Shown here piece by piece: positions 32,626 to 56,598 of a stretch of 64,000 nt of DNA. Every line of letters starts with the position of its first letter. Position 1 is the first letter of the stretch. The position numbers and the translations under genes are program-made. The stretch is from a virus (lineage: Duplodnaviria; Caudoviricetes), in IMG/VR virus record IMGVR_UViG_3300008110_007313. The stretch is one strand, 5' to 3'. The notes below the pieces were generated by a model. The model had not been told where the DNA came from and ran no database searches. It saw only the letters and a program-made list of their open reading frames with translations.

Positions 32626-35328
32626 TTAGTTGCCGACACTGCTGGCATGCATTCTGCGTCGAATTGACCCTACATGAGTAATATGATCCATTAACTTTTT
32701 GCGATACTGAACAGTGTTTTCTGTCAGTCCAATAGTTGCAAATTGTTGATCAACATATTTTTTGATTCGATCCACATCACTCTTGGTTTGCACAGATTCA
32801 AGCATCTTTGACACTTGTTTTTTGGTAGCTTCCAGTTGTGGTTGTAGTTGTTTTTGTATGTCTGCAGGAAGGTCTTTTAAGGCCACTGCGCTCTTGCCAT
32901 CTATCTTGGCTGCACCAGTTTTGGGATTGTAAGTTCCGCCGGAGCCTGCAGTTACAGTAGGAACTGTTGGTGCAGTTGGCGCATTGGGTGCTGCCGGAGC
33001 TTTGAATGTGGTTGTGGTCTTGCCGTACCCAGTAGGACCAGCACCAAAGTTGGCGGTCTTGGCAGGAGCTGCTGGTGCAGTCTTGGCATATTTTTGCATG
33101 CCAGGCATTTGCATGACATTAGATGCATTGAACGTAGCACCACCAGTTGACGGAGTAGTTGTTGTTGTAGTATTAACTGGAGGAGTTTGTTTTGTAGCGG
33201 CTGCTTTGGCCTGCAATTCATCCACAGTCCAGGGTTTCTTTGTGGCTGGATTTATACCATAGTAAGGCAATTGTGTTTGTGCACCACCTTTGTTTGTTTG
33301 GCCTTGCACTGGCGCAGGAGTAGGTGCAGGAGTAGGCGTAGGTGCAGGGATACCCATGCTGCCATAAACATCACCAATCACATTCTGCGGAACACCTTGT
33401 TTGGCCAAGAACGCAGCAATTGCATCGCTGTCACTGGGCTTGCCGGCCTGATGCCAATCCATCTTGAGTTTTTCTTTGGTAACTTTGGTAGTAAACTGAT
33501 GACCAAATTTGCTCAACGCACCGCCCACTTTGCCAGTGGCACGGTCCAGCCAATCAAGTCCCTTGCCGACAATGCCTTTTTTGCTCTTGTCATAACCTCC
33601 AGCGCCGCCGGGCATGTCAGGACGAAACTCATCAGGCAAGTCAGGACGACCTGGGCCTACCGCTTCTTTGACCACAGCTCGGGCATAACGGTTGACGTTT
33701 TCAAACACTGTGTAAACACCAAGTGTAGTAAGGTGTACACTTTGGCCTTGTGGCTTGCCTACACTTTCATTCAATGCCCAAGACATCACTGTTAGTTTGT
33801 CGTCAAGCAGTTTATCAGCAGGCAGAGTTTTAAAGTTAATGGATTCTCTAAATCCTGTACGCAATGCATTTCTCACAGAGGCCTGGTCCGCTTGCAGCTT
33901 GGCAGGATCTGCAACTTTACCTGTGCTGGCATCGACCCAAGAACCGTCAGGTTGTGGGATATAACGTTGAGTAGTTCCGCCAGTTGCATCTATTGGACTA
34001 GGCGCTTGTTTCATTGTCCAACCTGGGGGAATATTATCTGGATTAAAATTTGGTCCAAGATTTGTTGGGCCTGCGGGACTTGCACTAGAACCTGCAGGAC
34101 TCATACCTGCTGTTTGCCCAGCCGCTTTGTCTCCATACATACCGCCCTTGTAGTCAGACCACACACTGCCTTGGCTGGGAGTGCTAGCAGGTAAATTAAG
34201 TTCTGTGCCAGGCTTTAGTGCTTTGGCAAAATCAATATCTGGATTTGCTGCGCGAATTGCTTCAGGTGTTGTACCTTGCGCTTGGGCAATAAATCCCAGT
34301 TGGTCACCTTTTATCACAGTATAAGTGCCGCCAGGTCCACCAAGCCCAGGATTCAGTTTAACTAGTTCTTCTGGTGGCACACCAATTTGTTGTGCAATAT
34401 CATTGAGCGTCTCGCCTGGCTGTGCCTGCCATACATTGCCATTGCATGATCCCAACGGACATCTTACAGTGGCTCCTTGTGGCAACGGAGTATCTGTATT
34501 CACTATGGATTCCCCTGGGCTCAGACTATCTAATGCGCTAACTGCACCTAGGTTAGTGCCTGAAGAGCCCAGGGTACCTGCGGCTTGCTGAGCAGCAAAT
34601 TCAGCTTGTGTTAACGTTGTGGTAGGATTAGCAGTAACAAAGTTATCATAACTGTAGTCCATAACACCTGGACGAGTACCAGTGGTCGCTGCGGCCGCAG
34701 AATCTCCGCCAGACATCGCTCCAGAAATAGCTTGACCAGCCCAGGTAACAGCACTAGCACCAACACCTTTGCCAAGAACGCTGCTTAGTTTATCTCCACG
34801 GATGGCTGAATCAAGTGCATAGGTCAAGCCTGCAATGGCGGGCAAACCTGCACCGCCTGTGGCTAGACCAGCGATAGCAACCAGGGCTGCCTTGGCAAAA
34901 CCGGCTGCTTTGGGATATTCTTTCACCAGGTTACGATAACCTTTGATGGCCTGCATTACCTTGGTTTGTTGTCCGCCTGTGAGGTTGGCCACAGCATCAG
35001 TGGCCTGATCGTAGGCAACATCAACGGCCTGCACAGGAGCACTGTTCTGAATGCTGCTCATTACACTGTTGAACGCATCTTTGGCATTGGTAAATGCTTT
35101 TGTGGTTACATCTTTGCCTCGGCCCGCCCAGGTACGATTGGCACCTGTGTCTTTGTTGGTCAGACCTGTTTCAATTTTGCCGAACAAATCAAGAATCTCA
35201 GGTTCGGTCATCTTGCGTTCAGCAATGATACGACCTACCTTTTGCCACTGCTCAAACAACGGATCTTTGTAAACGTAAGATTCAACTAATCTTTCGCGTT
35301 CTGTTTTGTATATTTGTTCGAATATCAT
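32626..35328 (-). CDS. 900-aa LysM-domain protein, probably virion-associated
   Basis: Two LysM repeats (WQAQPGETLNDIAQQIG..., YTVIKGDQLGFIAQAQG...), a Gly/Ala hydrophobic hairpin, and Pro/Thr linkers. Confidence 0.75.
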   Translation of the reverse strand: MIFEQIYKTERERLVESYVYKDPLFEQWQKVGRIIAERKMTEPEILDLFGKIETGLTNKDTGANRTWAGRGKDVTTKAFTNAKDAFNSVMSSIQNSAPVQAVDVAYDQATDAVANLTGGQQTKVMQAIKGYRNLVKEYPKAAGFAKAALVAIAGLATGGAGLPAIAGLTYALDSAIRGDKLSSVLGKGVGASAVTWAGQAISGAMSGGDSAAAATTGTRPGVMDYSYDNFVTANPTTTLTQAEFAAQQAAGTLGSSGTNLGAVSALDSLSPGESIVNTDTPLPQGATVRCPLGSCNGNVWQAQPGETLNDIAQQIGVPPEELVKLNPGLGGPGGTYTVIKGDQLGFIAQAQGTTPEAIRAANPDIDFAKALKPGTELNLPASTPSQGSVWSDYKGGMYGDKAAGQTAGMSPAGSSASPAGPTNLGPNFNPDNIPPGWTMKQAPSPIDATGGTTQRYIPQPDGSWVDASTGKVADPAKLQADQASVRNALRTGFRESINFKTLPADKLLDDKLTVMSWALNESVGKPQGQSVHLTTLGVYTVFENVNRYARAVVKEAVGPGRPDLPDEFRPDMPGGAGGYDKSKKGIVGKGLDWLDRATGKVGGALSKFGHQFTTKVTKEKLKMDWHQAGKPSDSDAIAAFLAKQGVPQNVIGDVYGSMGIPAPTPTPAPTPAPVQGQTNKGGAQTQLPYYGINPATKKPWTVDELQAKAAATKQTPPVNTTTTTTPSTGGATFNASNVMQMPGMQKYAKTAPAAPAKTANFGAGPTGYGKTTTTFKAPAAPNAPTAPTVPTVTAGSGGTYNPKTGAAKIDGKSAVALKDLPADIQKQLQPQLEATKKQVSKMLESVQTKSDVDRIKKYVDQQFATIGLTENTVQYRKKLMDHITHVGSIRRRMHASSVGN

Positions 35329-35329
35329 A

Positions 35330-36067
35330 TTATTTCTCTTCTATGTAATCTTGTCCACGATCTCGTTGGGCTCTACGACGCTGAAACAATTTCAATGCTG
35401 TGTTAGCTTGATTGATGTCAGAAAACCTTGTAGGCAGGCTACGTCCACTGTGACGTATTTCAAATCCAGAATTGTCGTCGCCGTGTATTTCAAATACCAC
35501 ACTGTCTTCTATGGCCACTGTTTGCACAGGCATTGACTCTGGCAGTGTGGGGTTTTGTACAGGAGCAGGCGGTGGTTCCACAGACAACTCCTGCTGTGTG
35601 GGATCTTCGTACATGTCCTCTTCAGCTTCGCCACGTTCCACGGCTGATCTTGCTTTGTCTACTAGATCACGATCTACTGACTGTTTCTTTTCCAACTTGT
35701 CAAGATTTGGAGTTTCACGATCTCTAAGATCATCGTCGTGACGAATTTTCTTTTCTAACTTGTCAAGATAGCTGATGAAATCACCTTTGATTTTGCCCAG
35801 CATGTCTTCTTCAACTTCTTGCATGGCTTCTTCCAACGGCGACTTTGTGGGCTCTACTGAGTCGCCTACTAGCTTGCCATCCATGGGGTGTTTTTGATAA
35901 GGCTTTTTGGTTAGTGTTGGACTAATGTTCTTGGGTTTGAACAGCGCAGGCAATTGGTCCACAGACTTTTGCTGTTTGTTCAATCCGTGCTTGACCGTGA
36001 CAGGAGTAAGTTTACTTTCTACTGTGGCCAAACGATCAAGTATTGATCTAATATCTGTGGAACTCAT
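35330..36067 (-). CDS. Acidic hypothetical protein (putative head/core protein)
   Basis: 245 aa, Glu-rich; C-terminal QDYIEEK resembles EDYIDEK in 53929. Confidence 0.65.
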   Translation of the reverse strand: MSSTDIRSILDRLATVESKLTPVTVKHGLNKQQKSVDQLPALFKPKNISPTLTKKPYQKHPMDGKLVGDSVEPTKSPLEEAMQEVEEDMLGKIKGDFISYLDKLEKKIRHDDDLRDRETPNLDKLEKKQSVDRDLVDKARSAVERGEAEEDMYEDPTQQELSVEPPPAPVQNPTLPESMPVQTVAIEDSVVFEIHGDDNSGFEIRHSGRSLPTRFSDINQANTALKLFQRRRAQRDRGQDYIEEK

Positions 36068-36507
36068 GCTCTGGCGTCTTTCAAGAAACTTCTCAACATC
36101 CAGCCATGCTTGCCGTGTGCATCAATGCGCTCAGCAATAAAGTTAGCAATGCCTTCTTGTTTTTCGTTTTGTGCGATTTCAAAGGTCTTGTTGAGTAAGT
36201 CTATCATTTGGCCATTGTTGGCCAGCAATTCTTCAATCATGAGTCGGGCACGTGGAATTTTAGTTTGGCCTGAAATAATTGACAGTTCTTGAAAACGTTC
36301 AAAACTGCCAGGTGTGTAATCTTCTAGTGTGCGTATGTATTCTGCTGTGCGGTCAATTGAGTTATTGTAGACTTCTTCGTAGATGCCCCCAAAAAATTCG
36401 TGCAGTTGAGCAAAGTCAGGACCCTCCACGTTCCAGTGAAATAGCTGGGCTTTGATTACGAATGCGTATTCAGTTGCCAGGAGAGTTTTTAAAGCGTCCG
36501 CTAACAT
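36064..36507 (-). CDS. dps: Dps/ferritin-like protein
   Basis: FHWNVEGPDF.QLHEFF..IYEE..D..AE.IR, H.K..WML.S; start at 36507. Confidence 0.9.
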   Translation of the reverse strand: MLADALKTLLATEYAFVIKAQLFHWNVEGPDFAQLHEFFGGIYEEVYNNSIDRTAEYIRTLEDYTPGSFERFQELSIISGQTKIPRARLMIEELLANNGQMIDLLNKTFEIAQNEKQEGIANFIAERIDAHGKHGWMLRSFLKDARA

Positions 36508-36682
36508 TCTTGTTCCTTTTGTATTCTTTCGGAGTATTGGGAGTAGGATCCGTGCTATATTTACCACTCAACAAGCTGCCGCCATTTCTTGAAACCGTGC
36601 CCATGGGCTGAGTCACAGTGGCCATACTGCCTGCGGCAGTGCTGCCTGCTGACGCTGTTTCCATGATTTCTTTAAATCTCAT
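36470..36682 (-). CDS. Small protein with a CTS-like N-terminus (MRFKEIME)
   Basis: 70 aa; acidic propeptide-like start followed by a basic, Gly/Thr-rich body. Confidence 0.6.
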   Translation of the reverse strand: MRFKEIMETASAGSTAAGSMATVTQPMGTVSRNGGSLLSGKYSTDPTPNTPKEYKRNKNVSGRFKNSPGN

Positions 36683-36962
36683 CGCGAATCCTTACCACGT
36701 TGTGTGCTATAAACTCTGCTGGTCCAGATATTACTCGTGGATTCTGAGCTGTCAAATGTGCATTAGTGTCAATCATTTCGTATTTGATCACATAGTCGCC
36801 AGGTACTGCATTAACGGGAATCACTTCTTCTAGATACGACTGCACAAAATTAAAAGTGCGTTCAGTAAACAGTTCTCCTTGCACATACAATCGATAACGC
36901 GGAGGCGGCCCTGCCCAATCGCAAAACACATCATACTGTACCTGAACACTTTGTGGCTTCAT
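36672..36962 (-). CDS. Hypothetical protein
   Basis: 96 aa, TAAATA upstream. Confidence 0.65.
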   Translation of the reverse strand: MKPQSVQVQYDVFCDWAGPPPRYRLYVQGELFTERTFNFVQSYLEEVIPVNAVPGDYVIKYEMIDTNAHLTAQNPRVISGPAEFIAHNVVRIRDEI

Positions 36963-36969
36963 ATGGTAT

Positions 36970-37620
36970 TTAGCGGGATATTTGCATCAACCGCTGCTGA
37001 TAATACCGAAACTCTGTGCTGTTGAAATAGTCACAAAAATCTTGAGCACTACGTTTTCTGCACTGCGAATATGCCGCATGCGCTTTGGCAGCATAATCAT
37101 ACAAATTACTAAAGCCAAATGTTGCTGTCAGTTGCTGGTAAAAATTGCGGTCCAACACTGAATCAAACACAGTATCGCCATTGACAAAATTAAACAACGG
37201 TGTCTGACGCTGTTTGATATCTTGCATTGCATTATCACGAAGTAAAAATTTTGTTTTGATCTGATCAGGAGTGGTAGAATTCATGCCCAAGTTTATGTGA
37301 AAATAATGTGTAATAGGCAGCTGGTAATCAGCAAAAGTAATAAACAAAGTGGGATGATTTGTTAAGGACTGCCAGTCTTGGTAGTTGTGCGAAAGATTGA
37401 TGCCACCGTCCAGCATGTGACGATGACGCCATTCGTACTGCAACCAAGTGTTCCAGGTACGCTCTTTAGGGTACACTTGTTGTTGAATAAACAGTAGTTT
37501 ATCTTCGGGAGTTAGATAATTGTTAAACGGGTCTGTGTATTTTGGGTCTAAGAACAGTAACCAACGCAGATGATTGCCGCCAGCGCCTTCGGGAAAAATA
37601 ATATTACCGTGAAATGTCAT
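36970..37620 (-). CDS. Hypothetical protein
   Basis: Likely start at 37620 (MTFHGNIIF.EGAGGNHL); the longer track ORF runs antisense into 37706. Confidence 0.6.
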   Translation of the reverse strand: MTFHGNIIFPEGAGGNHLRWLLFLDPKYTDPFNNYLTPEDKLLFIQQQVYPKERTWNTWLQYEWRHRHMLDGGINLSHNYQDWQSLTNHPTLFITFADYQLPITHYFHINLGMNSTTPDQIKTKFLLRDNAMQDIKQRQTPLFNFVNGDTVFDSVLDRNFYQQLTATFGFSNLYDYAAKAHAAYSQCRKRSAQDFCDYFNSTEFRYYQQRLMQISR

Positions 37621-41171: not shown

Positions 41172-41182
41172 AAGGAGAAAAA

Positions 41183-41803: not shown

Positions 41804-41818
41804 TTCAAAGGATTTGAT

Positions 41819-42289: not shown

Positions 42290-42290
42290 A

Positions 42291-43525: not shown

Positions 43526-43568
43526 ATAAACACGAACATCAGTGTTCACAACTCACGGAGAATTCCCT

Positions 43569-44876: not shown

Positions 44877-45101
44877 TCAAGAAATCCTGGTGATTCCACT
44901 GACCACTGAGTCTTTGCCGTATTGTCCTTGCAACAACAGCTTGGCCATGGCAGGACTTTTTGCAAAAACTGCCACGTCGATGCTGGTATTATAGTCGGGA
45001 TTCTTTACTCGCACTCGAGCTTGATAGACTTGAAATCCTGGAGCCACAGATTCATTGAGATTGTACTGTGAACCGGTTGCTTTGGTTGCATACTGTTTCA
45101 T
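44877..45101 (-). CDS. Hypothetical small protein
   Basis: 74 aa, ATGA-coupled; contains LNE. Confidence 0.6.
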   Translation of the reverse strand: MKQYATKATGSQYNLNESVAPGFQVYQARVRVKNPDYNTSIDVAVFAKSPAMAKLLLQGQYGKDSVVSGITRIS

Positions 45102-46024
45102 TTTTTACGTCCTGATTTCATGTTGGCACACCAGTGATACATCTTGGCTCGTTCACCTGATGCGTTCTTGGCACGACGACGCAGATCAGTTACTGATCCG
45201 TTGCAACTAGCGCCTGCACGTTTCACACGTCCTGGACGGCTCTTGCCTCGGACTTTGCCATCAGCAAAGTTTTCAGTTAGCGTTTGTGCAAATTTTAAAG
45301 CTGCTTCCAGGTCTGCACGGCTAAATGGTCGAAGTTCTCCTCGAGCAACATCTGCTCTTATGTCATCAATTGTATAATCAACAAATTGTGTTTCTACCCC
45401 GCCAGTTTCATCTGGTCCTACAAGTTCTTGTTCGCTGTCAAAACGTCCGCGACAATCATAAGCTGAACCGTCAGGTGCCACAATATACACATGATCAATG
45501 CGATAGTCTTCGTCATCCTTGGCTTCTTCTTCCCAGCCAACATGTGCTTTTAATTTCCAATCTGGGTGTAATTTTTTCAATGCCAAAGCCATGACATGGC
45601 AGTGACCTGTCATGTAATCTGGAGAAGCAGTATCTTCTTTGATGTAGACATTTTGCAAGGCAGCAGCCACACCAGGATGCAAGGGTTGTGGCCAATGGCC
45701 CAGTTCTACCCAACAGTAGTCTTGCCATTCATTGTCAGGCCGCGGTTCAAATTCTTTTGGCACTGTGCCAATAAATGTGACATATTTGGCATTTTCGCCA
45801 ATACGCTTTAGTTCAATGGGACCAGTGTAACCGCCTTCTTCTGCAAGTTCACGTTTGGCACATTGTTCCAGCGACTCGCCGGGTTTTCTGCCACCACCCC
45901 AGGCTGCCCATAACCCACCGTCATTGATTGAGTCGCTGCGTTGTTGTAGGCCGTAACGCCCTGTGTCCTCTGCGTAGAGCACAATGCCAGCGGCTTGTTG
46001 TTCTGCAAATTCTTTTGCTCTCAT
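45098..46024 (-). CDS. Nudix hydrolase fused to a Cys-His-Asp domain and a basic C-terminal tail
   Basis: Nudix box GGRKPGESLEQCAKRELAEEGG; GHC...DHVY...YDCRG; N-terminus MRAKEFAE. Confidence 0.85.
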   Translation of the reverse strand: MRAKEFAEQQAAGIVLYAEDTGRYGLQQRSDSINDGGLWAAWGGGRKPGESLEQCAKRELAEEGGYTGPIELKRIGENAKYVTFIGTVPKEFEPRPDNEWQDYCWVELGHWPQPLHPGVAAALQNVYIKEDTASPDYMTGHCHVMALALKKLHPDWKLKAHVGWEEEAKDDEDYRIDHVYIVAPDGSAYDCRGRFDSEQELVGPDETGGVETQFVDYTIDDIRADVARGELRPFSRADLEAALKFAQTLTENFADGKVRGKSRPGRVKRAGASCNGSVTDLRRRAKNASGERAKMYHWCANMKSGRKK

Positions 46025-46563
46025 TGCTGACCTCTAACTCGATCAAAAAAGGTAGGTGCTGGACGACCTTTGACTAGACCGTGACGTTGATGTTGACTTG
46101 CATAGTCATAGTAACGACCAATAACATCAAATCCTGGCTCAAAAAATATAGCAGCTGGTGGGTTACTGTAACGCATAATTCCCACACGTTGTTTGCCTTG
46201 CGGAGGATTGACCACACCTGCGGCACCACGACGAGCGGGTTGTAACCAAGCTGTATCTTTGAGTTTAACTAACCAAACATAAGGACTTTCTGTTGCGTAT
46301 AAGTTTTTGGCGTTGAGATACTCGTTGACTGGATAAAACCAAAGTGCTGGACGACCTTTGCCTGCACCAATGTAGTCTACGTCAAATGCAGGATCATCCA
46401 TGTCGGGTGATCGACCAAATTTTTGTCTGGCGCTGAATCCCAGTTTGTCTACAGCAGTTACACGCACAAAATACTCACCAGGGCCATTCTTTTTTACGTC
46501 AGCACGAATCTGATCACTCACTGACGGAACACGGGCTTCAATGACAAACTCTTGTGCTCTCAT
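46021..46563 (-). CDS. Hypothetical protein with a CTS-like N-terminus (MRAQEFVIEARV)
   Basis: 180 aa, coupled to its neighbours. Confidence 0.7.
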   Translation of the reverse strand: MRAQEFVIEARVPSVSDQIRADVKKNGPGEYFVRVTAVDKLGFSARQKFGRSPDMDDPAFDVDYIGAGKGRPALWFYPVNEYLNAKNLYATESPYVWLVKLKDTAWLQPARRGAAGVVNPPQGKQRVGIMRYSNPPAAIFFEPGFDVIGRYYDYASQHQRHGLVKGRPAPTFFDRVRGQQ

Positions 46564-46567
46564 TGCA

Positions 46568-49500
46568 TTATCCCATTACTGGAACTACTTCAACACCAGC
46601 TTGCATATTTTGCGGATTTCTACGTAACCAATCCATGGCCACACGGTTAGCGTCACCTTGGTTGTTGCCCACACCTGAGAATCGATAGATCACACGACCT
46701 TCAGGGCCAACTATTTGCCACTCGCCTGTGAATGTTTGTTGACCTTGTCCAGGACGAGTCAGTGTCTGTGGTACATTGTATGGTGATATGTCTGGTCCAA
46801 TGTCAATGATGCCACCTTGTGCTGCGTCTGTACCACCAACACCTTCGCGAGTTCTTACTTCAAAGTCAGCTTCGTTGTGACCGTTTTGTCTCAACCAAGT
46901 TCTTGATTGTGACTCTGCTTCAATAGGATTACTGCTTGGTGGGTTGTAATAAACTTGGTTGTTGTCTCGGTTAGCAACTTCCCAAGGTCCAGGACCACTT
47001 GGTGTTAGTGTGTCTATGTCTGGCGAAGTGTTAGCTGTAGCACGTTGACGTTGCAAGTCTAGTGTACTTCCTGGAATAGGTTCAGCTGGCTCAATCTCAC
47101 GCACTTCAATATCACTTCGCATGTTGGGACGTTCAGCACGTTGTTGTTCTATCCATTGTTCTGCGGCAGCACGAGTTGGGAATCTATAGAATGGTGGTGT
47201 TTCACTTCTCGAATATGACCCAGGTTGATTAGCAAAGCGATTAGAATTGATTATCCAGATACCCCAGTTGCCTTGATCTGTTGATGCAGCAGGCTGTTGT
47301 GCTTGGGGTTGACCAAGGCGTTGGGTAGGATCTTGTGCATACATCCACTCACCGCCGGGGTTGGCCGCGATCCATTGGCGTAATACACTAAATGCATCAT
47401 TGCTGTCTGCGGCTGCATAGCGATATACCGGTGTCTCTCGGTCTTGTCGATCAATAATAATCCACCTGCCGTTGGGATTGCTGGGACGACCGTTTAGTGT
47501 TGGACCTGCTGCCTCAGGTGTTTGTGGTTCCTGATATGGACGTAGGGGAGTAGCAGTCATGTCTCGGGCATTGCGCCAGTCTGGATATTCTTGTTTGCCT
47601 TTTTCAATGGCTTCTTCTTTGCTGCTAGCAACAACTTCAACGCTGGCAAAATATCCAGGTCGTGCCACGTTCCACCACATCTTGCCTGTGACTTTGCCCT
47701 TTTCAACATTGCGAGCCAACTGCTTTTCACGCACTTGTCGAATTAGTGCTGCTTTGTCCAGCTCACCTGCCGAGTAGTTGGCAAACAGTTGCAGCACATC
47801 TGGCCCGCCTTTTGTTTGACTGCCTTCTAGTAGCTTGTATAGCTTTTTCAAATATTCTTGACGATAGGCTTTGGGATCAATAGCAGCTGACAACGCCACA
47901 GTGAATCGCAACAAGGTGTTTTCAATCTTGTCAAAGTTAGCATCCAACCAGTCGCCACCTGGACTACGGAATTCAATGTAGCCAGTCTTGGTGTTAATAC
48001 TAGTGTATTTGTCTGTAGTACCTGAGTGGATGGCCTTGGTAGCAATATCTTCCATGTGCTCACGCATTTTGTCCATGACCTGCGGAGCAATATCAGGATT
48101 TCTTTGCAACATGGTTTTGATCTTGCCAATAGCTGATTTAGCATAGGTGTTGCCTGAACGCCCAAACAATTCCAGCACATATTCGTCGCCCATGAGCAAG
48201 GCCAGTTTGACATAGTCCAGCTTGGCAAGAGTGTAGTTGGGCACACTGATGTTGATGTGCAGGCCAGTTGAATCGTTGGTGTAGCAACCTTCTCGCTTGG
48301 CCCAGGCTTTGACCTTGTTTAGGTCAGAGATCATTTCATCTATGGGCATGGGTGGGCTTACAAATTCCAGACCGCCATCACCAGGATTGTCGCCTTCTAG
48401 GCTACCATCAGGCTCTACCACATAGTGTCCGGCTTCACGTCGGCCACCATGATACTGTCTGCTGGCATTTACAGGCTTACCAATAGAGTTACTAAAATCA
48501 TCAGCCACTTGATCTATATCCATTTCACCATCTTGGCCATCATTGATGTCGTAGTAGTGAGGCCAACTAATATCAAAGTTGCTTTGAATGTCACTCATAG
48601 TTTGATACTTGTCATCCAAGAAACTGCGCTCGTCGTATTCTTCGTCTTGTTCGTCTGAAAACTCTTCAAATGCTTGATCGTGTATGCGGCCACGATCTTC
48701 AAATGCAGTATCGGCGAATTCAGTCTCCATTTCGTTCAGTCTAGCACTCAGCAATTCTGTGAATTCTTCCGACTCCGGTGGCAGATCTGGGTTGGCATCC
48801 ATAATTTCATCACGAGCCTGTGCCATGGCTTCGTCGCGATCAAACAGGTCGTTGTTAGCAACATAGTCCCGCACATAGTCTGCACCATCGCGTTCCCAAG
48901 CTTCAGCTATTTGTTCTTGTTTCCATTCCTGATATTCCCCGTCAAGTTCTTCAATCAGTCGGTCAGCGTCCCGACGGCTGTTATAGTCCCCGTCATAGAA
49001 AAAGTCTCGCACATCACCAAAACTACGACTGCGTTGATCCTGATCCCAGTCTGGTTCGTATTCGGGTTCTAGATCTTGTTCGATGTTGGGCACAATCATT
49101 TCAAATTCCATACCAGCTATGGCACCAGTCTTGGCAGCTTCAGCTCGCAGGTTCTTGCCAGTCATTTTGATTTCGCCTAGGAACTCATCTTCCAGCAAGG
49201 CAAATTCTTGACGCAAGCTTTCTACTAGTTCATCTTCGTCTGTATTTTGGCGAATTTTTGTCAGCTCAAATTCTACTTTGTCATCATGGTCAAAACTTCT
49301 AGCTTGATATCCCCAAGTTCCGGCATAACGCTGAACCAGTTTGTTGTATAACTTGGATCTGCTGCCTGTAGGATCGTCTTCCTTTACCGCAGAGAAACTT
49401 ATGTTTGCTGGCTGTTCCTGTTTTAAAAACTGTTGAATAGCGGCCAACACTGTGGCAAATATGCGTTGTGCATCACCTTCGCCTGTGACTTCTTGGCTGT

Positions 49501-51850
49501 TGTTTCTCCAAAAAGAAACAGCAACTTCATAGGGAGTAGTGTGCTCAAACATTATGCTCAAGTGCGTACCATCGTCCAGTGTAGCCAGTGCATCATAATC
49601 TCCGTACTCGCTTTTTTCCCATTTGATAGGATAAGGTTGATCAAATGTTTCGGACACATTGTAAGTAGGATCTGTCTTGATCTTGCGCATGCCTGGGGGT
49701 TGCGTAGGATCAGCAGGATCGATATCAGTAACATCCAGCCCTGTGGCTTTGAGATCCTTGATAAACTTGTGTTCAGTTTCTTCATCGCCAAACGAAATAA
49801 CTGAACTTGGTGGTCCTGCGCCAAAGTCGTGCTTGCCCAGACCCTTCATGTTTGAAATATGCTGACCCAGTTTGTACCAGTCATACATGTCGCTGACATC
49901 AATTCGCACTGTGCCAGCAGGCATAGTAGGCGGCGTTTCAGGTCCCAGGGGTTGATTCAAATCTCTATACTTTCCCTGTCCTTGACTGGGCTGTGGCATG
50001 CGACCTTCGCGCAAGTTGGCAGTCTTCATCAGCAGTGCTGGACGACCTTGAGCATCAGTTTTCAACGACATTTTGTTGGCATTCTTGCCTGTAGCACCTG
50101 GACGAACATCGGGGCTAAGAGCCATCACAAAGCGTGGATCATTCTTTTCGGCATCAGTGGGAATGTAACCAGATGCTTCCGCAATGTCTTCGCGTTGATA
50201 CTGATTGCCCGTCCAAGGTTGTTGCTGTGGTTGTTGACGTTGTTGTTGACGTTGTTGTAGTTGCCAAACACGGCTTTGATTCTGTGCTCCGGGATCTCCT
50301 TGTTGAGCCCGTATGTAATTTTTAAATTCTTGATTGAGTTCTTCTTCAGCACCAGCACGAGTCACATTGTGTTTGAGTCTGTATAAGGTACGAGCAACGT
50401 TGAGTATCTGTATTGGATTTAGTTGCCCTTGTTGTTGAACCTGTGGCTGTTGATCTTGTGGCAAGTAGTCTTGTGCCTGTGCGGGGGACATAGCCACCGC
50501 CGCAGCCAAGGCAGCAGCAGCGCCGGCTCGACTCATAACGCCTTCGTCAATTTCTTGACGCATGAACAATTCTGGATGAGCATCAGCATAGTCACGCATG
50601 ACAATGCCGGCTATGGCATGCGCTTCGTTTTCATAATCGCTGCCGGTATCTCCGGCATCATCGGGTAGAGATTCACGTTGATTTTGAGCACAATGAGCTA
50701 ATTCGTGTGCAGTGGTCCGCAGGATGTCCAAGAGATGACGATTGCCCAGACTCACATGTAGCTCATGTGATTCGGGTTTGTACATTCCAAAACTCTTGTT
50801 TTGTTGACTCCATTCAGGATCACGATGCAGTTCTACTCGTGGCAGGCGTTGTATGCCTAATTTTTCAGCGGTGTCTTTGATAAAGTTTTGTACAATATCT
50901 TCATGGTCTTGGTCAGTTTCACTGAGGAATTCTTGAGTGTCTGGGCTCACGCCGTCCCAGGTACTTTGAGCTCCTGCATCACCAATGGCGCTGCCTTGAG
51001 CCATGCCGGTGTTATCTTCGTACATGCTTTCGCCGCCGCCATCGCCACCTCCGGCGTCCCCTTCGCTGCCAAATCCAAACCCAGGATACCAGTAACCGCC
51101 AAGTCCATAGCGCACTTTTTTCTTCTTTTTCTTGCGCTCTTGTAAACTGAGTTCAGCATCTCTAGCAGCGTTACGAGCGTCGATCAGTTTCTTGATATAG
51201 CCTTGATTGCGCAGAACTTTGAAAGCCAAGTTGTCAGACCCGTACTCGCCTTGTTGTTCGAGACCCGACTGTCTCATTGTTTTGATCTTTTTGTGCAGAT
51301 CTGTGATGCGTTGATAATCGTTGGATTTTACAGCATCATCTATCCTTGCTGCAAGATCTTCAACTTTACTGTGAACGCTGACATCATCTATTTCAGGTTT
51401 TCTGCGCTTGGGCACAGATACCCAGTTATTTTTTGACAAGCTGTAGATGCCCTGACTGTGATGTTCTTGATTGGGATCTTGTACATAGAGTTCAACATCG
51501 TACCCGCCTATTTTGATATTGTGCATGTCGTTGTACTGATACTTTTTAGCATCAAACAACTCGCGAAATACTTCACTACTGTCGGCTTCGGGTAAGTCTA
51601 CTACAAGATGTAGATCAATATCGCTGTTGGGGGTGTAGTTGTAGGCAGCATTGGATCCTGACACAGTGATGTCTTTGACATCAAGATCAGGTACGCCTAA
51701 AAATTCTTGGAAATCTGCTGCTATTTCCAGCAGTTTGCTTTTTACTTCAGAACGCAGGTGTTCGTTTTCGTCCCACAACCGGGGATTTAACCGGTTATGG
51801 AACTTTACTGAATCGCTGAGGCGGTAATTGTCTAACTCTGTGATATTCAT
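46568..51850 (-). CDS. 1760-aa multidomain protein: Pol-beta-type NTase, zincin, putative amidoligase and C-terminal repeats
   Basis: GSNAAYNY...SDIDLH; TAHELAH; GMEFEM...EPDGSL...LEFVSPP...TGLHIN...IEFRSPGG; five W-containing repeats. Confidence 0.85.
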   Translation of the reverse strand: MNITELDNYRLSDSVKFHNRLNPRLWDENEHLRSEVKSKLLEIAADFQEFLGVPDLDVKDITVSGSNAAYNYTPNSDIDLHLVVDLPEADSSEVFRELFDAKKYQYNDMHNIKIGGYDVELYVQDPNQEHHSQGIYSLSKNNWVSVPKRRKPEIDDVSVHSKVEDLAARIDDAVKSNDYQRITDLHKKIKTMRQSGLEQQGEYGSDNLAFKVLRNQGYIKKLIDARNAARDAELSLQERKKKKKKVRYGLGGYWYPGFGFGSEGDAGGGDGGGESMYEDNTGMAQGSAIGDAGAQSTWDGVSPDTQEFLSETDQDHEDIVQNFIKDTAEKLGIQRLPRVELHRDPEWSQQNKSFGMYKPESHELHVSLGNRHLLDILRTTAHELAHCAQNQRESLPDDAGDTGSDYENEAHAIAGIVMRDYADAHPELFMRQEIDEGVMSRAGAAAALAAAVAMSPAQAQDYLPQDQQPQVQQQGQLNPIQILNVARTLYRLKHNVTRAGAEEELNQEFKNYIRAQQGDPGAQNQSRVWQLQQRQQQRQQPQQQPWTGNQYQREDIAEASGYIPTDAEKNDPRFVMALSPDVRPGATGKNANKMSLKTDAQGRPALLMKTANLREGRMPQPSQGQGKYRDLNQPLGPETPPTMPAGTVRIDVSDMYDWYKLGQHISNMKGLGKHDFGAGPPSSVISFGDEETEHKFIKDLKATGLDVTDIDPADPTQPPGMRKIKTDPTYNVSETFDQPYPIKWEKSEYGDYDALATLDDGTHLSIMFEHTTPYEVAVSFWRNNSQEVTGEGDAQRIFATVLAAIQQFLKQEQPANISFSAVKEDDPTGSRSKLYNKLVQRYAGTWGYQARSFDHDDKVEFELTKIRQNTDEDELVESLRQEFALLEDEFLGEIKMTGKNLRAEAAKTGAIAGMEFEMIVPNIEQDLEPEYEPDWDQDQRSRSFGDVRDFFYDGDYNSRRDADRLIEELDGEYQEWKQEQIAEAWERDGADYVRDYVANNDLFDRDEAMAQARDEIMDANPDLPPESEEFTELLSARLNEMETEFADTAFEDRGRIHDQAFEEFSDEQDEEYDERSFLDDKYQTMSDIQSNFDISWPHYYDINDGQDGEMDIDQVADDFSNSIGKPVNASRQYHGGRREAGHYVVEPDGSLEGDNPGDGGLEFVSPPMPIDEMISDLNKVKAWAKREGCYTNDSTGLHINISVPNYTLAKLDYVKLALLMGDEYVLELFGRSGNTYAKSAIGKIKTMLQRNPDIAPQVMDKMREHMEDIATKAIHSGTTDKYTSINTKTGYIEFRSPGGDWLDANFDKIENTLLRFTVALSAAIDPKAYRQEYLKKLYKLLEGSQTKGGPDVLQLFANYSAGELDKAALIRQVREKQLARNVEKGKVTGKMWWNVARPGYFASVEVVASSKEEAIEKGKQEYPDWRNARDMTATPLRPYQEPQTPEAAGPTLNGRPSNPNGRWIIIDRQDRETPVYRYAAADSNDAFSVLRQWIAANPGGEWMYAQDPTQRLGQPQAQQPAASTDQGNWGIWIINSNRFANQPGSYSRSETPPFYRFPTRAAAEQWIEQQRAERPNMRSDIEVREIEPAEPIPGSTLDLQRQRATANTSPDIDTLTPSGPGPWEVANRDNNQVYYNPPSSNPIEAESQSRTWLRQNGHNEADFEVRTREGVGGTDAAQGGIIDIGPDISPYNVPQTLTRPGQGQQTFTGEWQIVGPEGRVIYRFSGVGNNQGDANRVAMDWLRRNPQNMQAGVEVVPVMG

Positions 51851-51875
51851 AACAGAGTATTTACCGCAGTTTGTG

Positions 51876-52757
51876 TTAGGCTGCTTTCTTGCTAGAAGCC
51901 AGAACTTCTGTTTCTACAGCAGGTGTAGGCTCTGCAGCCAAGGCATGTGGGGTACCAGCGGCTGGTGCAACAGTGGGGTCTACAGCCTGTGGCATACTTT
52001 TTGGCAGTTGCCCGGCCTGTGCCATAGCGTGCAGATCTTGATAGAGCTTTTCGTGTGTGCCAAAATCAAAGGTGTATGTGCCCACGTGGCGCAACAGCAC
52101 ACGCTTGTCCACAAATACTTGGCCACCAATGTCGCGCCAGTTTTCACAGAATGTCCAGTCTTCTGAGTAGTAACGTCCTTCGCGAACTGCGGTGTCAAAG
52201 TAGGTTTTCATGTGTACGTTGAGTGCAGGGTCAAGACCAATGTCGTTGGTAAATGGCTTCACAGCAGGGTGAGCATTGAGTTTTTCAAAAACTTCGCGTT
52301 TCATCAACAAGAAGCCTGTGCCTGTTTTTGTAACTTCAATCAAGCCCGATGGATCATCTTCAGGAGCACCTGGGATGCCATTTACGCACCATTTAACAGG
52401 CAAGCTCTTCATTGGGTACAAGCCGCCCACAACATCTTTGTCATGATTCAGCAAGGCCAGTAAGTGCCAGGGCTCCCAGCCAATATCAGCATCAATGAAC
52501 ATCAGGTGTGTTGAGCCTTCGGTGTTCAAAAACTTGGCGGTGAGTGTGTTTCGAGCACGACTAATTAGACTTTCATTGGTCATTGTTTCCACAGTCCAAT
52601 CAATGCCCAGTTGTCGGCAAGTATTACCCCATTTGATAAAACTCATAAAGGTCTGCTCAGTGAGCTGGCCTCCATAACAAGGCATACAGATATGTACTCG
52701 AGTGGTACGCAGATAATCGAGGTTAACTTGAATTTGTTGTTGCTGTGATTCAGCCAT
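51876..52757 (-). CDS. GT-A-fold glycosyltransferase-like protein
   Basis: SLISRARN, FIDADIGW, GTGFLLMKREVF, SEDWTFC. Confidence 0.8.
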   Translation of the reverse strand: MAESQQQQIQVNLDYLRTTRVHICMPCYGGQLTEQTFMSFIKWGNTCRQLGIDWTVETMTNESLISRARNTLTAKFLNTEGSTHLMFIDADIGWEPWHLLALLNHDKDVVGGLYPMKSLPVKWCVNGIPGAPEDDPSGLIEVTKTGTGFLLMKREVFEKLNAHPAVKPFTNDIGLDPALNVHMKTYFDTAVREGRYYSEDWTFCENWRDIGGQVFVDKRVLLRHVGTYTFDFGTHEKLYQDLHAMAQAGQLPKSMPQAVDPTVAPAAGTPHALAAEPTPAVETEVLASSKKAA

Positions 52758-52811
52758 TGGGATCTCCAGTAAAATTGTAGCAATATTTAATGCTAGCGGC
52801 CAGCAGCGGCA

Positions 52812-54026
52812 TTATTTTAACACACCGGCCTGTTGTACAGATTGATATAAATTGGGTAAAGTAGTGCGCCAATCAAGAGATCTGCGTTGGTCCAATTGAT
52901 GCAACCGATCAATCCATTGATTGTTACCGTTGGCAGATTGCAAACTGCTCGATATTAACTGTGCTACAGCATCTGATTGAGAAGAAAATTCCCGCAGTAA
53001 TTGTTCTTTGAGTGCAAGACTGGCAGTGTCAATACCCAGTAGTCCTACTACCAATTGATAGGTATTGTGTATCTTGATTCTTTCTTGATAAGGTTGAGTA
53101 AACTTCACCCACCAATCTTGTGTTTGTTGAGCAAGATGTACATTGTGTATTCCCAGTGCAGTGGACATGACCACATGGTCAAATCCAAGTTCAATGACTT
53201 TTTGAATGTTTTCAGTTACAGTGTTCCATTTCAGTGGATACCGTATGTATTCAAACTGCGGTCCTGTGCCGTCTATACTAAAATACACAGTGACATGAGC
53301 AGCTTGTTTGAGCAATGCAATCATCTCATCTGACGGCATGCAACTGCCATTCATGTTGAAGCCCACATCAATTTGATTTAGTTTACCCAAATCAGACAGT
53401 TTTTGTAAAATTTTTACAGGGTCTTGACTCAGCACCGGCTCACCGCCGTTGAAATACACACGAACAATGTTTTCAAAGTTTATATGATCAATTATGTTGT
53501 TGTCGCGAGCAGTGGCAGCACTGCGACTGATAGGAAATGCAGTATCTGAAAATTTTTGATCTTCTGCTAACCAGGAACTACTGTGATAGTTGCTGCAAAT
53601 AATACATTTGGCATTGCAAATGGGCTCAACATTCCAGTCGAGATTTTGCAAACCTGGTTGTTGATATTGAGAATAAAATTCAATACTACTGATCCTTAAA
53701 CTGCGTCCAGTGTACTTTTCTTGATTCCAACATACTGAGCATTCTTTGCTGGCAATGCCGGCTTGATTTTCTTGTCTGAGTCGCAGCAAAAATGGATTAG
53801 TATCAAAGTTCACCTGATCATTAGAACAAGATTGGCCTTGAGCTGCACAACAGGGTGCAACCACGCTGGTGTCAGCATCACGCCGCTCCACGTACATGCT
53901 TTTGAATATTGCAGGACAGTAATAAGGATTATTTTTTTCTTCCAGCACAGTGAGCTCTTTGACTGAATCCTTGTGGGCGATCGCAATTGATTGATTGTTT
54001 GTACTTGTCACTCCATTTTTCATCAA
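52812..54026 (-). CDS. Radical SAM/SPASM-like protein (paralog 3); true start probably nearer 53950
   Basis: YYCP...PCC...CSVCW, CNAKCIIC, NGGEP. Confidence 0.85.
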   Translation of the reverse strand: MMKNGVTSTNNQSIAIAHKDSVKELTVLEEKNNPYYCPAIFKSMYVERRDADTSVVAPCCAAQGQSCSNDQVNFDTNPFLLRLRQENQAGIASKECSVCWNQEKYTGRSLRISSIEFYSQYQQPGLQNLDWNVEPICNAKCIICSNYHSSSWLAEDQKFSDTAFPISRSAATARDNNIIDHINFENIVRVYFNGGEPVLSQDPVKILQKLSDLGKLNQIDVGFNMNGSCMPSDEMIALLKQAAHVTVYFSIDGTGPQFEYIRYPLKWNTVTENIQKVIELGFDHVVMSTALGIHNVHLAQQTQDWWVKFTQPYQERIKIHNTYQLVVGLLGIDTASLALKEQLLREFSSQSDAVAQLISSSLQSANGNNQWIDRLHQLDQRRSLDWRTTLPNLYQSVQQAGVLK

Positions 54027-56598
54027 TGTAATCTTCGTTTGTGGGTTGATCTTTTGTCTTAATATGATTTACAACTGCAGGAGTTTTTTTCTTGTCGGGA
54101 GCAACATACACATTCTGTTTAGTCTGTGTCTGTGTGTTTTGTATTCTCAATGACTTTGCTACTGGTTCTACTTTGATGTTTTCTGCTTCAGTTACACGTG
54201 GTGCTCGACGGAGATAATTTACAGCCATGCTCAACGCCTGGCCCACTGCAACAGTGGGCTTTTTACCAGGTACAGCATCGGCCACTACCACTCGCAGTTT
54301 GACCTTGCCGCTGGGCAACACATCGACCACTTTGGCATGTACCCGTTGATGATTAGAAAAGTTCTTGGTCAGGTCTAACACTTGTCCTGTGGACTCTTCC
54401 AAGGTAGCAGCCCAGCCTTGGTTTTCCCCTACAGCAGACTCTGCAGCAGTACCAATCAGATGCTTTGCATCGCCTGCCTTTTCCCAAGCGGCCCACATTG
54501 CTTTGCCTTGACTTGTTTGATTATAACTGGCTCGAATATCATTGCCTAACATTTTAGCATACGCATACATTGTGGATGCAATGCCTTTGTTTCTATATGC
54601 TGGATCAACCTCAGTGCCGCCACTTTCTAAGTAATCTGCGGATGGCATTCTTCTTCCGCCCGGAGATCTTACAATTATTTCAAATAGGATATGACCTATT
54701 TCCTTATTGCCGTCATAGGCTTTGATCCACAACAATGGAGCACCTTCAAAGTCCTCAGCGGTTGCTGTGTAAGTGTAATCACCAATTTTTTGTTTGTGTT
54801 TGAATCTTGGATTGAGTATGGCCGAGTTTATTGTTTCCGCCACACCTTGCGGTTGTGTTGCATTTACTTTATAGAACGGCTCAGAACCAAGTTTAGCAAG
54901 AAATGCATTAACACGTTTTTTAAATTCATCTGGGTTTGCACTAACCTCAGAATGTCCCATTGGCTGTAAATCTTTGTTGATGATTGCATCACCGGTCTTT
55001 TTCATAAAAGGTATTTGCGCTTCTACACTAGATAAATCGCCTAAAGCATTGTTTAGTCTAGCTGCACCGAGTGCTAACATTTTGCTGCCGTAAAATTTGT
55101 TAATTGAGTCTTCGCCGCCCTTGTTCAACCAGCCCGAAGAGTGCCGGCCAAACACAGGATACCACTTACCTGTTGGAACCGAAGCCTTGCCGCCGCCACC
55201 AGTACTAATATAATAAGGAACGTTAACACCGAGAACATTCATAACTACCATGATTCTGTCACCGGTGTTAACTACTTTGGCAGTACCTTTAGGATTAGTG
55301 GAAGAAGTAAATACAGGCAAGTCCACCAGACCTGATAGTTTATCTGCGTATTCAAGGCCTTCTGTCACACCTTCGTCATACTCATCACGACCCCAGGGTT
55401 CGCCGTATATCTTTTCCCAGTCTTGGTTGAGCGGTAGATCATTTTCCTGCCAGTATGAACCCAGTTGATCCTTTAACTGTGTGTCGCCTTGCAGGTATGC
55501 ATCAAACCCTGTCTTTAGTCCTTTTAAGAAACCATCACGAACTTGCTCAAAATGTGCTATGTCAGCTGCCTGACTTTGCAGTGTGCCAGCTTGTGCTAAG
55601 TCTTGTTTGGTCCATCCAGCATCTATTAGGTCCTGTAGTTCTTCTTGTTTTTGCTGGGAGAAATCATTGACAAAGTTTGCAGTAACAGCGTAATAACTTG
55701 AAGCAGAATCGCCGCCGGGTGCAAATTCATTTAGAGAGCCTTCCGCTACACCTTGGTCACCTCGACCAACCAATCTAATTAGATAACCTTGTTTGAAATG
55801 CACTGGATGATACATGACCACATTCATAGTACTGTCGTTATTCCAGGATATTTTTACATCGCCGCCAGCTGCGCGAATTTTGCCCATTATGTTTTCTATC
55901 TCTTGCTTGTTCTTATTAGGACCATACAAGGCATTGCCAAGATCATCTGCTAGTTGTAACAAATATGACTTTTCGTCTCCGCCATCGCCACTGGACGGAG
56001 CAAACTCGTTTAGTTCTGTGCCCATAGCTGTGTCTAATAGTTTGACCACTGTGGCAGCTAGTTTGGGATTGGCTTGTGTTCGGGGATACAGACTCATCAC
56101 AAGAGCCTGTTTTCGTTTGTCATTTAGCCGGGGCCATGCACCACGAATCTCTGTGGCCGATGTCATACCAGGACCAAACTCCACTGTGGGCAGGTAGGCC
56201 ATATAGGCATGTTGAGCAAACGGCTCAACATTTTTGCCTGTCCAGGGCTGTAGGTAACTGGGACTGCCATCTTTCTTTACCCCGCCTGGTCGTGGAGGCG
56301 ACCCACGATCTTTGTCACTGCGCACAAAGATCAGGGTATCTTGCTCAGGATTGTATCGGGCTGTTACTTCTTCGGCCTTGAACGGGCTTTTGACCTGGAC
56401 AAATCTGTTGGGTGCAACACCAGCTAGCTTGGCTAATTTTTCTTTGATTGCAAACGGAAATGGTCTAGCACTGGTGTCGTTGGTGGCCGCAACATAAACG
56501 TCAGCGTCGGGAAACGCATCTACTGCACTTTTGTACAGTGCATAGTGTCCTGCGTGAAACGGATGAAACCCACCGGGCATGATTACAATTGTGGTCAT
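53929..56598 (-). CDS. 889-aa modular protein: HxGH nucleotidyltransferase, unknown modules, GNAT and a basic Cys tail
   Basis: PGGFHPFHAGH; EVDPAYRNKGIAS (GNAT motif A); repeated GV(A/T)E and LNEFAP linkers; KWSDKYKQSINC...HCAGRKK. Confidence 0.85.
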   Translation of the reverse strand: MTTIVIMPGGFHPFHAGHYALYKSAVDAFPDADVYVAATNDTSARPFPFAIKEKLAKLAGVAPNRFVQVKSPFKAEEVTARYNPEQDTLIFVRSDKDRGSPPRPGGVKKDGSPSYLQPWTGKNVEPFAQHAYMAYLPTVEFGPGMTSATEIRGAWPRLNDKRKQALVMSLYPRTQANPKLAATVVKLLDTAMGTELNEFAPSSGDGGDEKSYLLQLADDLGNALYGPNKNKQEIENIMGKIRAAGGDVKISWNNDSTMNVVMYHPVHFKQGYLIRLVGRGDQGVAEGSLNEFAPGGDSASSYYAVTANFVNDFSQQKQEELQDLIDAGWTKQDLAQAGTLQSQAADIAHFEQVRDGFLKGLKTGFDAYLQGDTQLKDQLGSYWQENDLPLNQDWEKIYGEPWGRDEYDEGVTEGLEYADKLSGLVDLPVFTSSTNPKGTAKVVNTGDRIMVVMNVLGVNVPYYISTGGGGKASVPTGKWYPVFGRHSSGWLNKGGEDSINKFYGSKMLALGAARLNNALGDLSSVEAQIPFMKKTGDAIINKDLQPMGHSEVSANPDEFKKRVNAFLAKLGSEPFYKVNATQPQGVAETINSAILNPRFKHKQKIGDYTYTATAEDFEGAPLLWIKAYDGNKEIGHILFEIIVRSPGGRRMPSADYLESGGTEVDPAYRNKGIASTMYAYAKMLGNDIRASYNQTSQGKAMWAAWEKAGDAKHLIGTAAESAVGENQGWAATLEESTGQVLDLTKNFSNHQRVHAKVVDVLPSGKVKLRVVVADAVPGKKPTVAVGQALSMAVNYLRRAPRVTEAENIKVEPVAKSLRIQNTQTQTKQNVYVAPDKKKTPAVVNHIKTKDQPTNEDYIDEKWSDKYKQSINCDRPQGFSQRAHCAGRKK

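Follow-up and report, generated by a model that had tools for sequence, protein, structure and literature searches.

A shared N-terminal leader and hydrophobic-x-Glu module junctions suggest a protease-processed head cargo in a freshwater T4-type jumbo phage

A 64,000-nucleotide stretch of viral DNA (IMG/VR record IMGVR_UViG_3300008110_007313; Duplodnaviria, Caudoviricetes), here called the window, encodes between positions 32,626 and 56,598 a group of proteins that either begin with a short common leader or consist of unrelated modules joined at hydrophobic-x-Glu (h-x-E) tripeptides. Both the family of leaders and the motif at the junctions are strongly non-random. They recall bacteriophage T4, whose internal proteins IPI, IPII and IPIII, together with Alt, carry capsid targeting sequences (CTS) and are cut by the gp21 protease (PMC3012670, PMC9026906). 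Packaging of the leader-tagged and modular proteins as cargo and their cleavage by a prohead protease is the best-supported mechanism, and we lean towards it. Packaging, protease cleavage, injection and all enzymatic activities are steps that we infer from comparison.

Results

The phage and its relatives

The window is part of a freshwater jumbo phage of the T4 superfamily. Its family-B DNA polymerase (27488-30154, minus strand) has its nearest counterparts in jumbo phages that carry T4 core genes, with 51% identity to Sinorhizobium phage Phosso, 47% to Agrobacterium phage Atu_ph07 and about 42% to Rak2/PBECO4-like phages. Megablast with positions 44.8-56.7 kb returned no DNA-level match to cultured phages, and tblastn with a 180-aa leader-bearing protein (Table 1) returned none in cultured phages; lake-metagenome contigs encode an identical copy of that protein. 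A search of IMG/VR for an exact 50-mer gave no hit. Two near-complete IMG/VR relatives, G001 (349 kb) and G002 (367 kb), were taken whole as stand-ins for the genome of the window. Their versions of the 180-aa protein are 86% and 67% identical to that of the window.

The shared leader

The five N-termini that a first-pass annotation of this DNA had read as targeting leaders are all found at their genes, on the minus strand (Table 1). As a leader family they fare unequally: the starts MRAKEFAE, MRAQEFVIEARV and MRFKEIME stand, whereas MIFEQIYKTE of P0001 is only loosely leader-like. The long chain P0005 is leaderless. The T4 starts adduced for comparison are borne out by the T4 record, in which IPII begins with MKTYQEFIAEARV and Alt with MELITEL; IPIII begins there with MKTYQEFIAEASV and gp24 with MAKINELLRE. 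Since the IPII and IPIII starts have the common form MKTYQEFIAEA(R/S)V, the leader MRAQEFVIEARV closely matches a real T4 leader.

The consensus is M-R-A-x-E-F-(I/L/V)-x-E, nine residues long, with [ILVF]-x-E at positions 7-9 in the listed leaders. Gene starts of the form MRA.E[FL] occur twice in the window, five times in G001 and six times in G002, compared with 0.004, 0.017 and 0.012 expected from the internal frequency of the word, an enrichment of more than 300-fold across the three genomes. A scan of G001 with the DNA pattern of the leader found six copies, and the reversed control none. The DNA upstream of leader genes is unrelated and the leader codons vary synonymously (AGA/CGA, GCA/GCT/GCC, GAA/GAG, TTT/TTC), so selection acts on the peptide. 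This peptide is not hydrophobic, and the bodies behind it are unrelated to each other: a Nudix protein, a GNAT, a zincin chain, an ADP-ribosyltransferase (ART)-like protein, the FDQPY module and several proteins of no known family.

Among the best 120 of 275 homologues of the 180-aa protein there are 102 distinct N-terminal 13-mers, in which E/D5, F/I/L6, I/L/V7, E9 and A10 are kept. Glutamate occupies position 9 in 70 of 84 regular leaders, and most of the others are one residue shorter. In T4 IPIII, targeting depends on residues 4 and 7, and cleavage on residues 8 and 10 (PMC9026906). With an offset of one residue, F6, the hydrophobic residue 7, E9 and A10 of the leader correspond to F7, I8, E10 and A11 of T4, a comparison that supports the mapping of the conserved leader positions onto CTS residues known to matter (PMC9026906). 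The exact word MRAxEF is absent from Atu_ph07, nt-1, S-SM2 and DSL-LC02; these phages have leaders of other flavours, namely MKTLKQFLKE, MKTFQDFLEE and MIEFLTE.

Junctions between modules

The abundance of h-x-E tripeptides, which the first-pass annotation had listed as evidence, does not serve as such. Counts equal those in shuffled sequences for P0004 (30 vs 29.8) and P0005 (11 vs 10.8), and neither these two chains nor the Nudix protein is enriched, so a listing of LNE, LTE and the like is not evidence in itself. P0001 is the sole one of four tested proteins with an excess over shuffles (13 vs 5.6). The related claim that such sites lie between domains holds up well, because their position at module boundaries, judged by homology breakpoints, is significant.

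In every case compared, the breakpoints of cassette-like modules coincide with [V/L/I]-x-E (in what follows, ↓ marks the junction). The GNAT module follows MRAQEFVGE↓K as a free-standing protein in G001, QGVAE↓T within P0005 and MRASEFITE↓A in G002. The FDQPY module follows NVSE↓T within P0004, MRASEFITE↓A behind a leader in G002, GILE↓A at an internal site in G002 and NLTE↓A in the T4-like Vibrio phage nt-1. Module 4 of P0005 (GLEYADKL...) is found in database proteins behind the leaders MRATEFIVEGLAE↓ and MRATEFIIEGVAE↓, behind the linker QGVAE↓, and directly after the HxGH domain at DLAE↓. The last three residues of the leader thus exactly replace a linker at the N-terminal boundary of the same module.

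P0005 was scanned against 1.84 billion representatives, which gave 3,978 relatives. The database matches cover residues 1-197, 288-411, 409-588 and 580-889, boundaries that coincide with the junctions, and the matches of the relatives likewise end at about 197, 288, 410 and 585, that is, at linkers. In P0005-like proteins, which are 245-1149 aa long, the first domain alone is common to all (53-92% identical) and the rest differs; domain order varies strongly between orthologous loci, and the G001 version has ParB-like and other modules instead. The best 150 relatives have at least 91 distinct contexts downstream of the first domain. In 90 of 91 such contexts, a [LIVMF]-x-E ends 6-18 residues past the conserved ..VVK(L/M)LD, with a peak at 9-11, as compared with 18% of random windows of equal size (binomial P = 2e-65). 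At P3 these junctions have V in 46 cases, L in 38, and M and I in 3 each; at P1', G, S, D, F and A predominate.

An AlphaFold 2 (AF2) model of P0005 has a mean predicted local distance difference test (pLDDT) score of 66. All six junctions fall in segments with pLDDT below 50 between folded domains (these include residues 196-207, 264-302, 389-445, 580-588, 714-733 and 809-861, with one junction each), and the model supports the placement of the junctions in flexible linkers.

The GVAE linkers carry, in addition, the DNA word GGTGTGGCGGAA, present in four copies in G001 and four in G002 at non-orthologous sites (Table 1). It is written in rare codons (6-7% of Ala codons are GCG, and in G002 10% of Val codons are GTG), and it is shared although the proteins of G001 and G002 orthologues have an identity of only about 65%. 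Conservation as rare-codon DNA means that protease recognition alone is no explanation. It suggests that the nucleotides themselves are under selection, for example as a recombination joint for module exchange, a second role that would match the free reshuffling of modules.

Prohead protease and head genes

A gp21-type protease, a scaffold and gp23 are found in near-complete G001 and G002; for the phage of the window they are seen in relatives only. In both relatives the head genes follow the T4 order of portal, small core protein, acidic core protein, Peptidase_S77, scaffold and gp23. The small core protein starts with MLLQEFWKK in G001 and with MKLFEMF in G002. The peptidase (211-212 aa) scores above the Pfam cut-off, with 80 bits in G001 and 99 bits in G002, and the G001 enzyme (L013:1444-2082) is 31% identical to T4 gp21 and keeps the motifs GE.xHP and GVSSRG. 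Related metagenome stretches with a homologue number 338 and include a 364-kb lake contig; in the best 80 of the 338, the protease is 83-97% identical. The gp22-like scaffold is a coiled coil rich in h-x-E. Alignment with LTE↓AEIGG of T4 places the capsid propeptide junction at LKE↓NASAGST in G001 (L015:1342-2538) and at LAE↓SSAGTT in G002. The 70-aa protein of the window, MRFKEIME↓TASAGST (TASAGSTAAGSMATV), resembles the G001 capsid junction LKE↓NASAGSTSAGNIATL, the predicted mature N-terminus; its G001 orthologue starts with MKMREIMET.

Promoter-like boxes and timing

The late promoter of T4 is TATAAATA. The word TAAATA is 20-30-fold enriched immediately upstream of G001 and G002 genes, and boxes precede P0004, P0005 and the 36.9-32.6 kb operon (Table 1). 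In G001, TAAATA precedes the portal, core, gp67-like and large tail genes, with the same spacing at the portal and gp67-like genes as at P0004. None stands before the DNA polymerase gene of the window. This distribution fits late expression of the cargo operons. Genome-wide in G001 and G002, TAAATA peaks at 10-13 nt and at 22-29 nt upstream of the ATG; since the former spacing leaves no room for a Shine-Dalgarno sequence, many late messages may be leaderless or nearly so.

Table 1. Features of the two proposed cargo regions. Positions refer to the window unless a relative or residue numbers are named.
Feature	Position	Strand	Details
P0001, 900 aa	32626..35328	-	Starts MIFEQIYKTE; two LysM (Pfam, 5e-16), apolar Gly/Ala-rich segment, low-complexity regions
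245-aa acidic protein	35330..36067	-	Ends ...DYIEEK
Dps/ferritin-like protein	36064..36507	-	36.9-32.6 kb operon; leaderless; Pfam Ferritin 1.4e-21; orthologues in G001 and G002
70-aa basic protein	36470..36682	-	Leader MRFKEIME↓TASAGSTAAGSMATV (translation)
96-aa protein	36672..36962	-	First gene of 36.9-32.6 kb operon
TAAATA box	36967-36972	-	10 nt upstream of 96-aa gene start
Plus-strand island	37706-44294	+	Signal-peptide/membrane segments, Thr/Asn/Ser-rich repeats, DUF4337 protein, fatty-acid desaturase
74-aa protein	44877..45101	-	Last gene of P0004 operon; leaderless
Nudix protein, 308 aa	45098..46024	-	Leader MRAKEFAE (translation), extra middle module, basic two-Cys tail; Pfam NUDIX 7.6e-15
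Two-Cys tail module, Nudix protein	45098-45271	-	
Nudix protein junction	45272-45283	-	L-T-E↓NFADGK
180-aa protein	46021..46563	-	Starts MRAQEFVIEARV; leader MRAQEFVIE↓ARV; ADP-ribosyltransferase-like body (translation, AF2)
P0004, 1760-aa polyvalent chain	46568..51850	-	Starts MNITEL (translation); Pfam, PHROG, relatives
P0004 modules	residues		NTase 1-237; zincin-like HELAH 382-386; signal-peptide-like 437-459; SGYIP module; FDQPY 735-875; amidoligase ~876-1345; C-terminal W-repeats
P0004 junctions	residues		LSE311, IDE436, IAE558, VSE734, LVE877
TAAATA box	51858..51863	-	13 nt upstream of P0004 start codon
P0005, 889-aa modular chain	53929..56598	-	Leaderless
P0005 modules	residues		HxGH nucleotidyltransferase 1-195; three unassigned modules; GNAT ~589-720; beta module; two-Cys tail 861-889
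P0005 junctions	residues		LNE198, GVAE286/LNE291, GVTE413, GVAE588, VGE725, IDE860
Two-Cys tail module, P0005	53929-54018	-	
GGTGTGGCGGAA sites, window	55741-55752, 55360-55371, 54835-54846		
GGTGTGGCGGAA sites, G001	285377, 285776, 293995, 294349		
GGTGTGGCGGAA sites, G002	190406, 255283, 255421, 255631		
TAAATA box	56604..56609	-	11 nt upstream of P0005 start codon

The modular chains

Four of the domains named in the first-pass annotation are supported by profile searches: LysM (5e-16), Nudix (8e-15) and amidoligase (2e-5) in Pfam, and the Pol-beta-type nucleotidyltransferase (NTase) of P0004 in PHROGs (4e-47). The HxGH transferase and GNAT of P0005 are borderline in Pfam, both at 4e-4. P0004 also holds a DUF6934-like module, and its zincin-like module has HELAH followed by ENEAH; this module has no Pfam match and resembles one in G002 and cyanophages, so that the zincin assignment would rest on the HELAH motif and on likeness to relatives. 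Searches of Pfam and PHROGs gave no match for the middle and C-terminal parts of P0004, for P0002, for the 70-aa protein or for the 74-aa protein.

Modules of P0004 are found as single genes in cyanophages, Cr30, KVP40-like phages, Atu_ph07, RsoM2USA, Lak and other very large uncultured phages. The amidoligase homologue in Atu_ph07, a phage for which 112 extra virion-associated proteins have been reported (PMC6102473), is gp196. The cyanophage NTase homologue starts with MNLQEFV and adjoins a 57-aa gene that starts with MKTFQDFLEE.

Directly after the junction Glu of IDE436, residues 437-459 of P0004 (50474-50542) look like a signal peptide, running from IDE↓GVMSRAG... through an Ala-rich stretch to ...SPAQA. 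Signal-peptide-like segments also stand right behind the junction Glu in the database proteins P0139, P0184, P0138 and P0177; such segments of homologues include LDE↓DMSRRGFLKGLGA..., which is twin-arginine-like, and LDE↓GWKNAIAGGAMALSALGAG... Segments so placed could act as N-terminal export or membrane signals only once the junction has been cut.

The short basic Cys tails noted earlier are present in two proteins of the window, P0005 and the Nudix protein, with the related two-Cys ends ...HCAGRKK and ...WCANMKSGRKK. The module is basic, about 30 aa long (29 aa in P0005), with the consensus WS.KYK.SI.C..P.GFSQ(R/K)AHCAG(R/K)KK, and belongs to no Pfam or PHROG family. It is 55-79% identical in T4-like cyanophages, again behind h-x-E: in S-SM2 (L055:2174-2602) it ends a protein of the structural module that starts with MKTLKQFLKE, and in P-TIM68 (L056:1994-3115) it lies inside a gene that adjoins the capsid gene. 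If cut free, the tail would be a small basic peptide within the head. The 245-aa protein ends with DYIEEK (DYIEEH in G001), words also found just before the Cys tail of P0005, as though the gene broke off at a junction to which a tail cassette could be joined.

Smaller genes and neighbours

The AF2 model of the 180-aa protein has a pLDDT of 82, falling to 47 in the first ten residues. Comparison with the diphtheria toxin, MbcT, ParT and RES folds gives VIA Z scores of 5-6 only; ART, PARP or RES folds make up the majority of the 50 VIA matches listed. Foldseek against the PDB gave no match at E <=0.001, the E values being 0.1 or higher. R34 and S44 are invariant in the family, and there is no invariant Glu outside the leader and no conserved catalytic Glu. 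An ART-like protein, which would parallel T4 Alt, is a suggestive lead from the model and not a finding.

The G001 orthologue of the Nudix protein (182 aa) is without the middle module and keeps L-S-E↓NFADGK and the tail. The Nudix gene neighbours an NTase homologue both in the window (45098-51850) and in the unrelated flavobacterial Maribacter phage Molly_1 (gp024-gp026), a neighbourhood that hints at a functional pair. P0001 has no orthologue in G001 or G002, and the syntenic site of G001 is without it. A leader-bearing chain of G002 ends with LysM and a lysozyme-like domain behind an apolar segment, an architecture that would suit a protein acting on the cell wall at entry.

The plus-strand island separates the two cargo regions. 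The glycosyltransferase-like gene at 51876-52757 and the radical SAM gene at 52812-54026 lie within the range first noted and have neither leader nor junctions; the latter overlaps the end of P0005. It is one of three radical SAM paralogues in the window (the others are at 22573-23697 and 30535-31650), and at least eight related genes are present in G001.

Discussion

Together, the leader, the junctions and the head genes of relatives suggest a model in which the region would encode late-expressed cargo of a T4-type head. The nine-residue leader on the small and medium proteins would act like a T4 CTS, attaching its protein to the scaffold that forms the prohead core, and would be cut off after its Glu by a gp21-type prohead protease. 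P0004 and P0005 would be enzyme cassettes on flexible linkers, each with a [V/L/I]-x-E at which the protease would cut, releasing NTase, zincin, amidoligase, GNAT, HxGH transferase and basic Cys peptides. Upon infection, these units would exit the head with the DNA, some of them then beginning with a signal-peptide-like or membrane segment. An extended version, which we regard as possible and put forward tentatively, is a combinatorial cargo system in which the linker would serve both as prohead-protease site ([V/L/I]-x-E) and as recombination joint (GGTGTGGCGGAA), and in which internal Sec- or Tat-like signals would be exposed by cleavage, so that the host would re-export some injected modules, for example LysM and lysozyme units, to the periplasm. 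With a linker that doubles in this way, the lineage could swap cassettes between leader-tagged genes and polyproteins.

Several observations speak against packaging and prohead cleavage. P0005 starts directly with the HxGH fold, and the head entry of such leaderless chains is therefore unexplained. The protease is known from relatives only, in which the 180-aa protein is 86% and 67% identical. The G001 Nudix orthologue has the leader MRANEFTQP, in which the second Glu is missing. Overall h-x-E density is at chance, P3 is more often Val here than in T4, which prefers Leu or Ile, and the GVAE linkers are conserved as DNA in rare codons. The cargo genes lie amid replication and metabolic genes, outside the structural module, and TAAATA also heads some non-structural genes. 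As to gene location, T4 internal-protein genes likewise lie away from the head genes.

Alternatively, the chains could be polyvalent proteins that act whole or are cut by their own zincin, with linkers that are mainly recombination joints for shuffling. An HExxH module is present in P0004 and in a leader-bearing protein of G002, self-processing by zincin domains has been proposed for polyvalent proteins (PMC5512222), the GVAE linker DNA is identical at non-orthologous sites, and module order varies freely between relatives. We nevertheless consider this explanation unlikely. Most junctions are not GVAE and have in common only [V/L/I]-x-E, with variable P2 residues and codons, for which a peptide signal is a better fit than a DNA joint; self-cleavage is possible for P0004 and not for P0005 and the many junction-bearing proteins without a zincin; and a DNA joint leaves out the exact substitution of the linker by the end of the leader. 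Moreover, the roles of protease site and recombination joint are compatible, which makes this explanation partly an addition to prohead cleavage and not an alternative to it.

It is also conceivable, though in our view improbable, that the leader is another kind of signal on proteins that stay in the cell unpackaged, be it a tag for Clp/Lon-type proteases of the phage itself, a signal for membrane insertion or secretion, or a context for translation initiation. A 757-aa ATP-dependent protease is indeed encoded beside the cargo region, the cyanophage NTase homologues adjoin a DNA polymerase gene, and both the location of the cargo genes and the missing leader of P0005 would be in keeping with it. 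A hydrophobic signal or a nucleotide-level one is at odds with the composition of the leader, its synonymous codon variation and the unrelated DNA upstream. Its conserved positions match T4 positions for targeting and cleavage, its words recur in the head-core protein of the lineage and at the capsid junction, and location away from head genes holds for T4 as well. Finally, the resemblance could be an artefact of chance or paralogy among a few recent duplicates with a common N-terminus. The 180-aa protein and its orthologues are one family, and conservation within it therefore proves little; given the unrelated bodies behind the leader, its more than 300-fold excess and the junction statistic, we find this explanation hardly credible.

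If packaging and prohead cleavage take place as proposed, a widespread freshwater lineage would deliver at infection a large and rapidly reshuffled set of enzymes, a payload far richer than the three internal proteins and Alt of T4. For one lineage, this would answer how polyvalent proteins enter the capsid and are cut into working units. The predictions are exact and can be checked, since mature N-termini should lie directly behind the named Glu residues. The short leader and the junction could also be taken from nature as a scheme by which T4-type heads are loaded with several proteins.

The closest known system is that of T4, whose internal proteins and capsid targeting sequences were reportedly the subject of work by Mullaney and Black in 1996. 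There as here, a short N-terminal leader stands on unrelated proteins with variable cargo behind it, a Q/N-E-F core is followed by hydrophobic-x-Glu and then Ala, and a gp21-family protease, a gp22 scaffold and gp23 occur, here in the two relatives. In contrast to T4, the leader described here is shorter by one residue (MRAxEF...), P3 is often Val, the proposed cargo includes metabolic and modifying enzymes, and the chains reach 1760 aa with several internal junctions, unlike T4 internal proteins; the system is also known from sequence alone.

Polyvalent proteins of phages and conjugative elements are predicted to be packaged and delivered with the DNA (Iyer, Burroughs, Anand, de Souza and Aravind 2017, PMC5512222). 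They, too, combine many effector-type domains of unrelated kinds in a single chain (Pol-beta NTase, GNAT and zincin-like peptidase, with a ParB-like module in the G001 paralogues) and show extreme variation of domain order between relatives; P0004 and P0005 (HxGH transferase plus GNAT) each have at least two unrelated effector-type domains, the criterion for such proteins. For polyvalent proteins, processing by their own metallopeptidase has been proposed, with no named targeting signal (PMC5512222), whereas here we find a T4-type leader, [V/L/I]-x-E at every module boundary and, in relatives, a matching prohead protease. The repertoire here adds amidoligase, HxGH transferase and basic Cys tails.

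In phiKZ, 201phi2-1 and SPN3US, as proposed here, many proteins are loaded into the head, and a gp21 homologue cuts after the Glu of a three-residue motif (PMC5694885, PMC10052503). The mature ejection protein gp47 of SPN3US begins with a membrane helix. These phages differ in their (S/A/G)-x-E motif, in propeptides of 80-130 residues and in having no recognised gp22 and no cassette-like multi-enzyme chains, and the lineage described here falls within the T4 core-gene group, with Atu_ph07, Phosso and Rak2-like phages as neighbours. Arbiol, Comeau and Krisch are said to have described in 2010 how PeSL-type mobile cassettes mediate gene shuffling in T4-type genomes. As with such cassettes, short conserved DNA words at module borders might act as recombination joints; the word described here differs in lying inside reading frames, at domain borders, and in encoding a putative protease site as well. 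T4 internal-protein targeting and polyvalent proteins are both known ideas, and what appears to be new is their union in one system.

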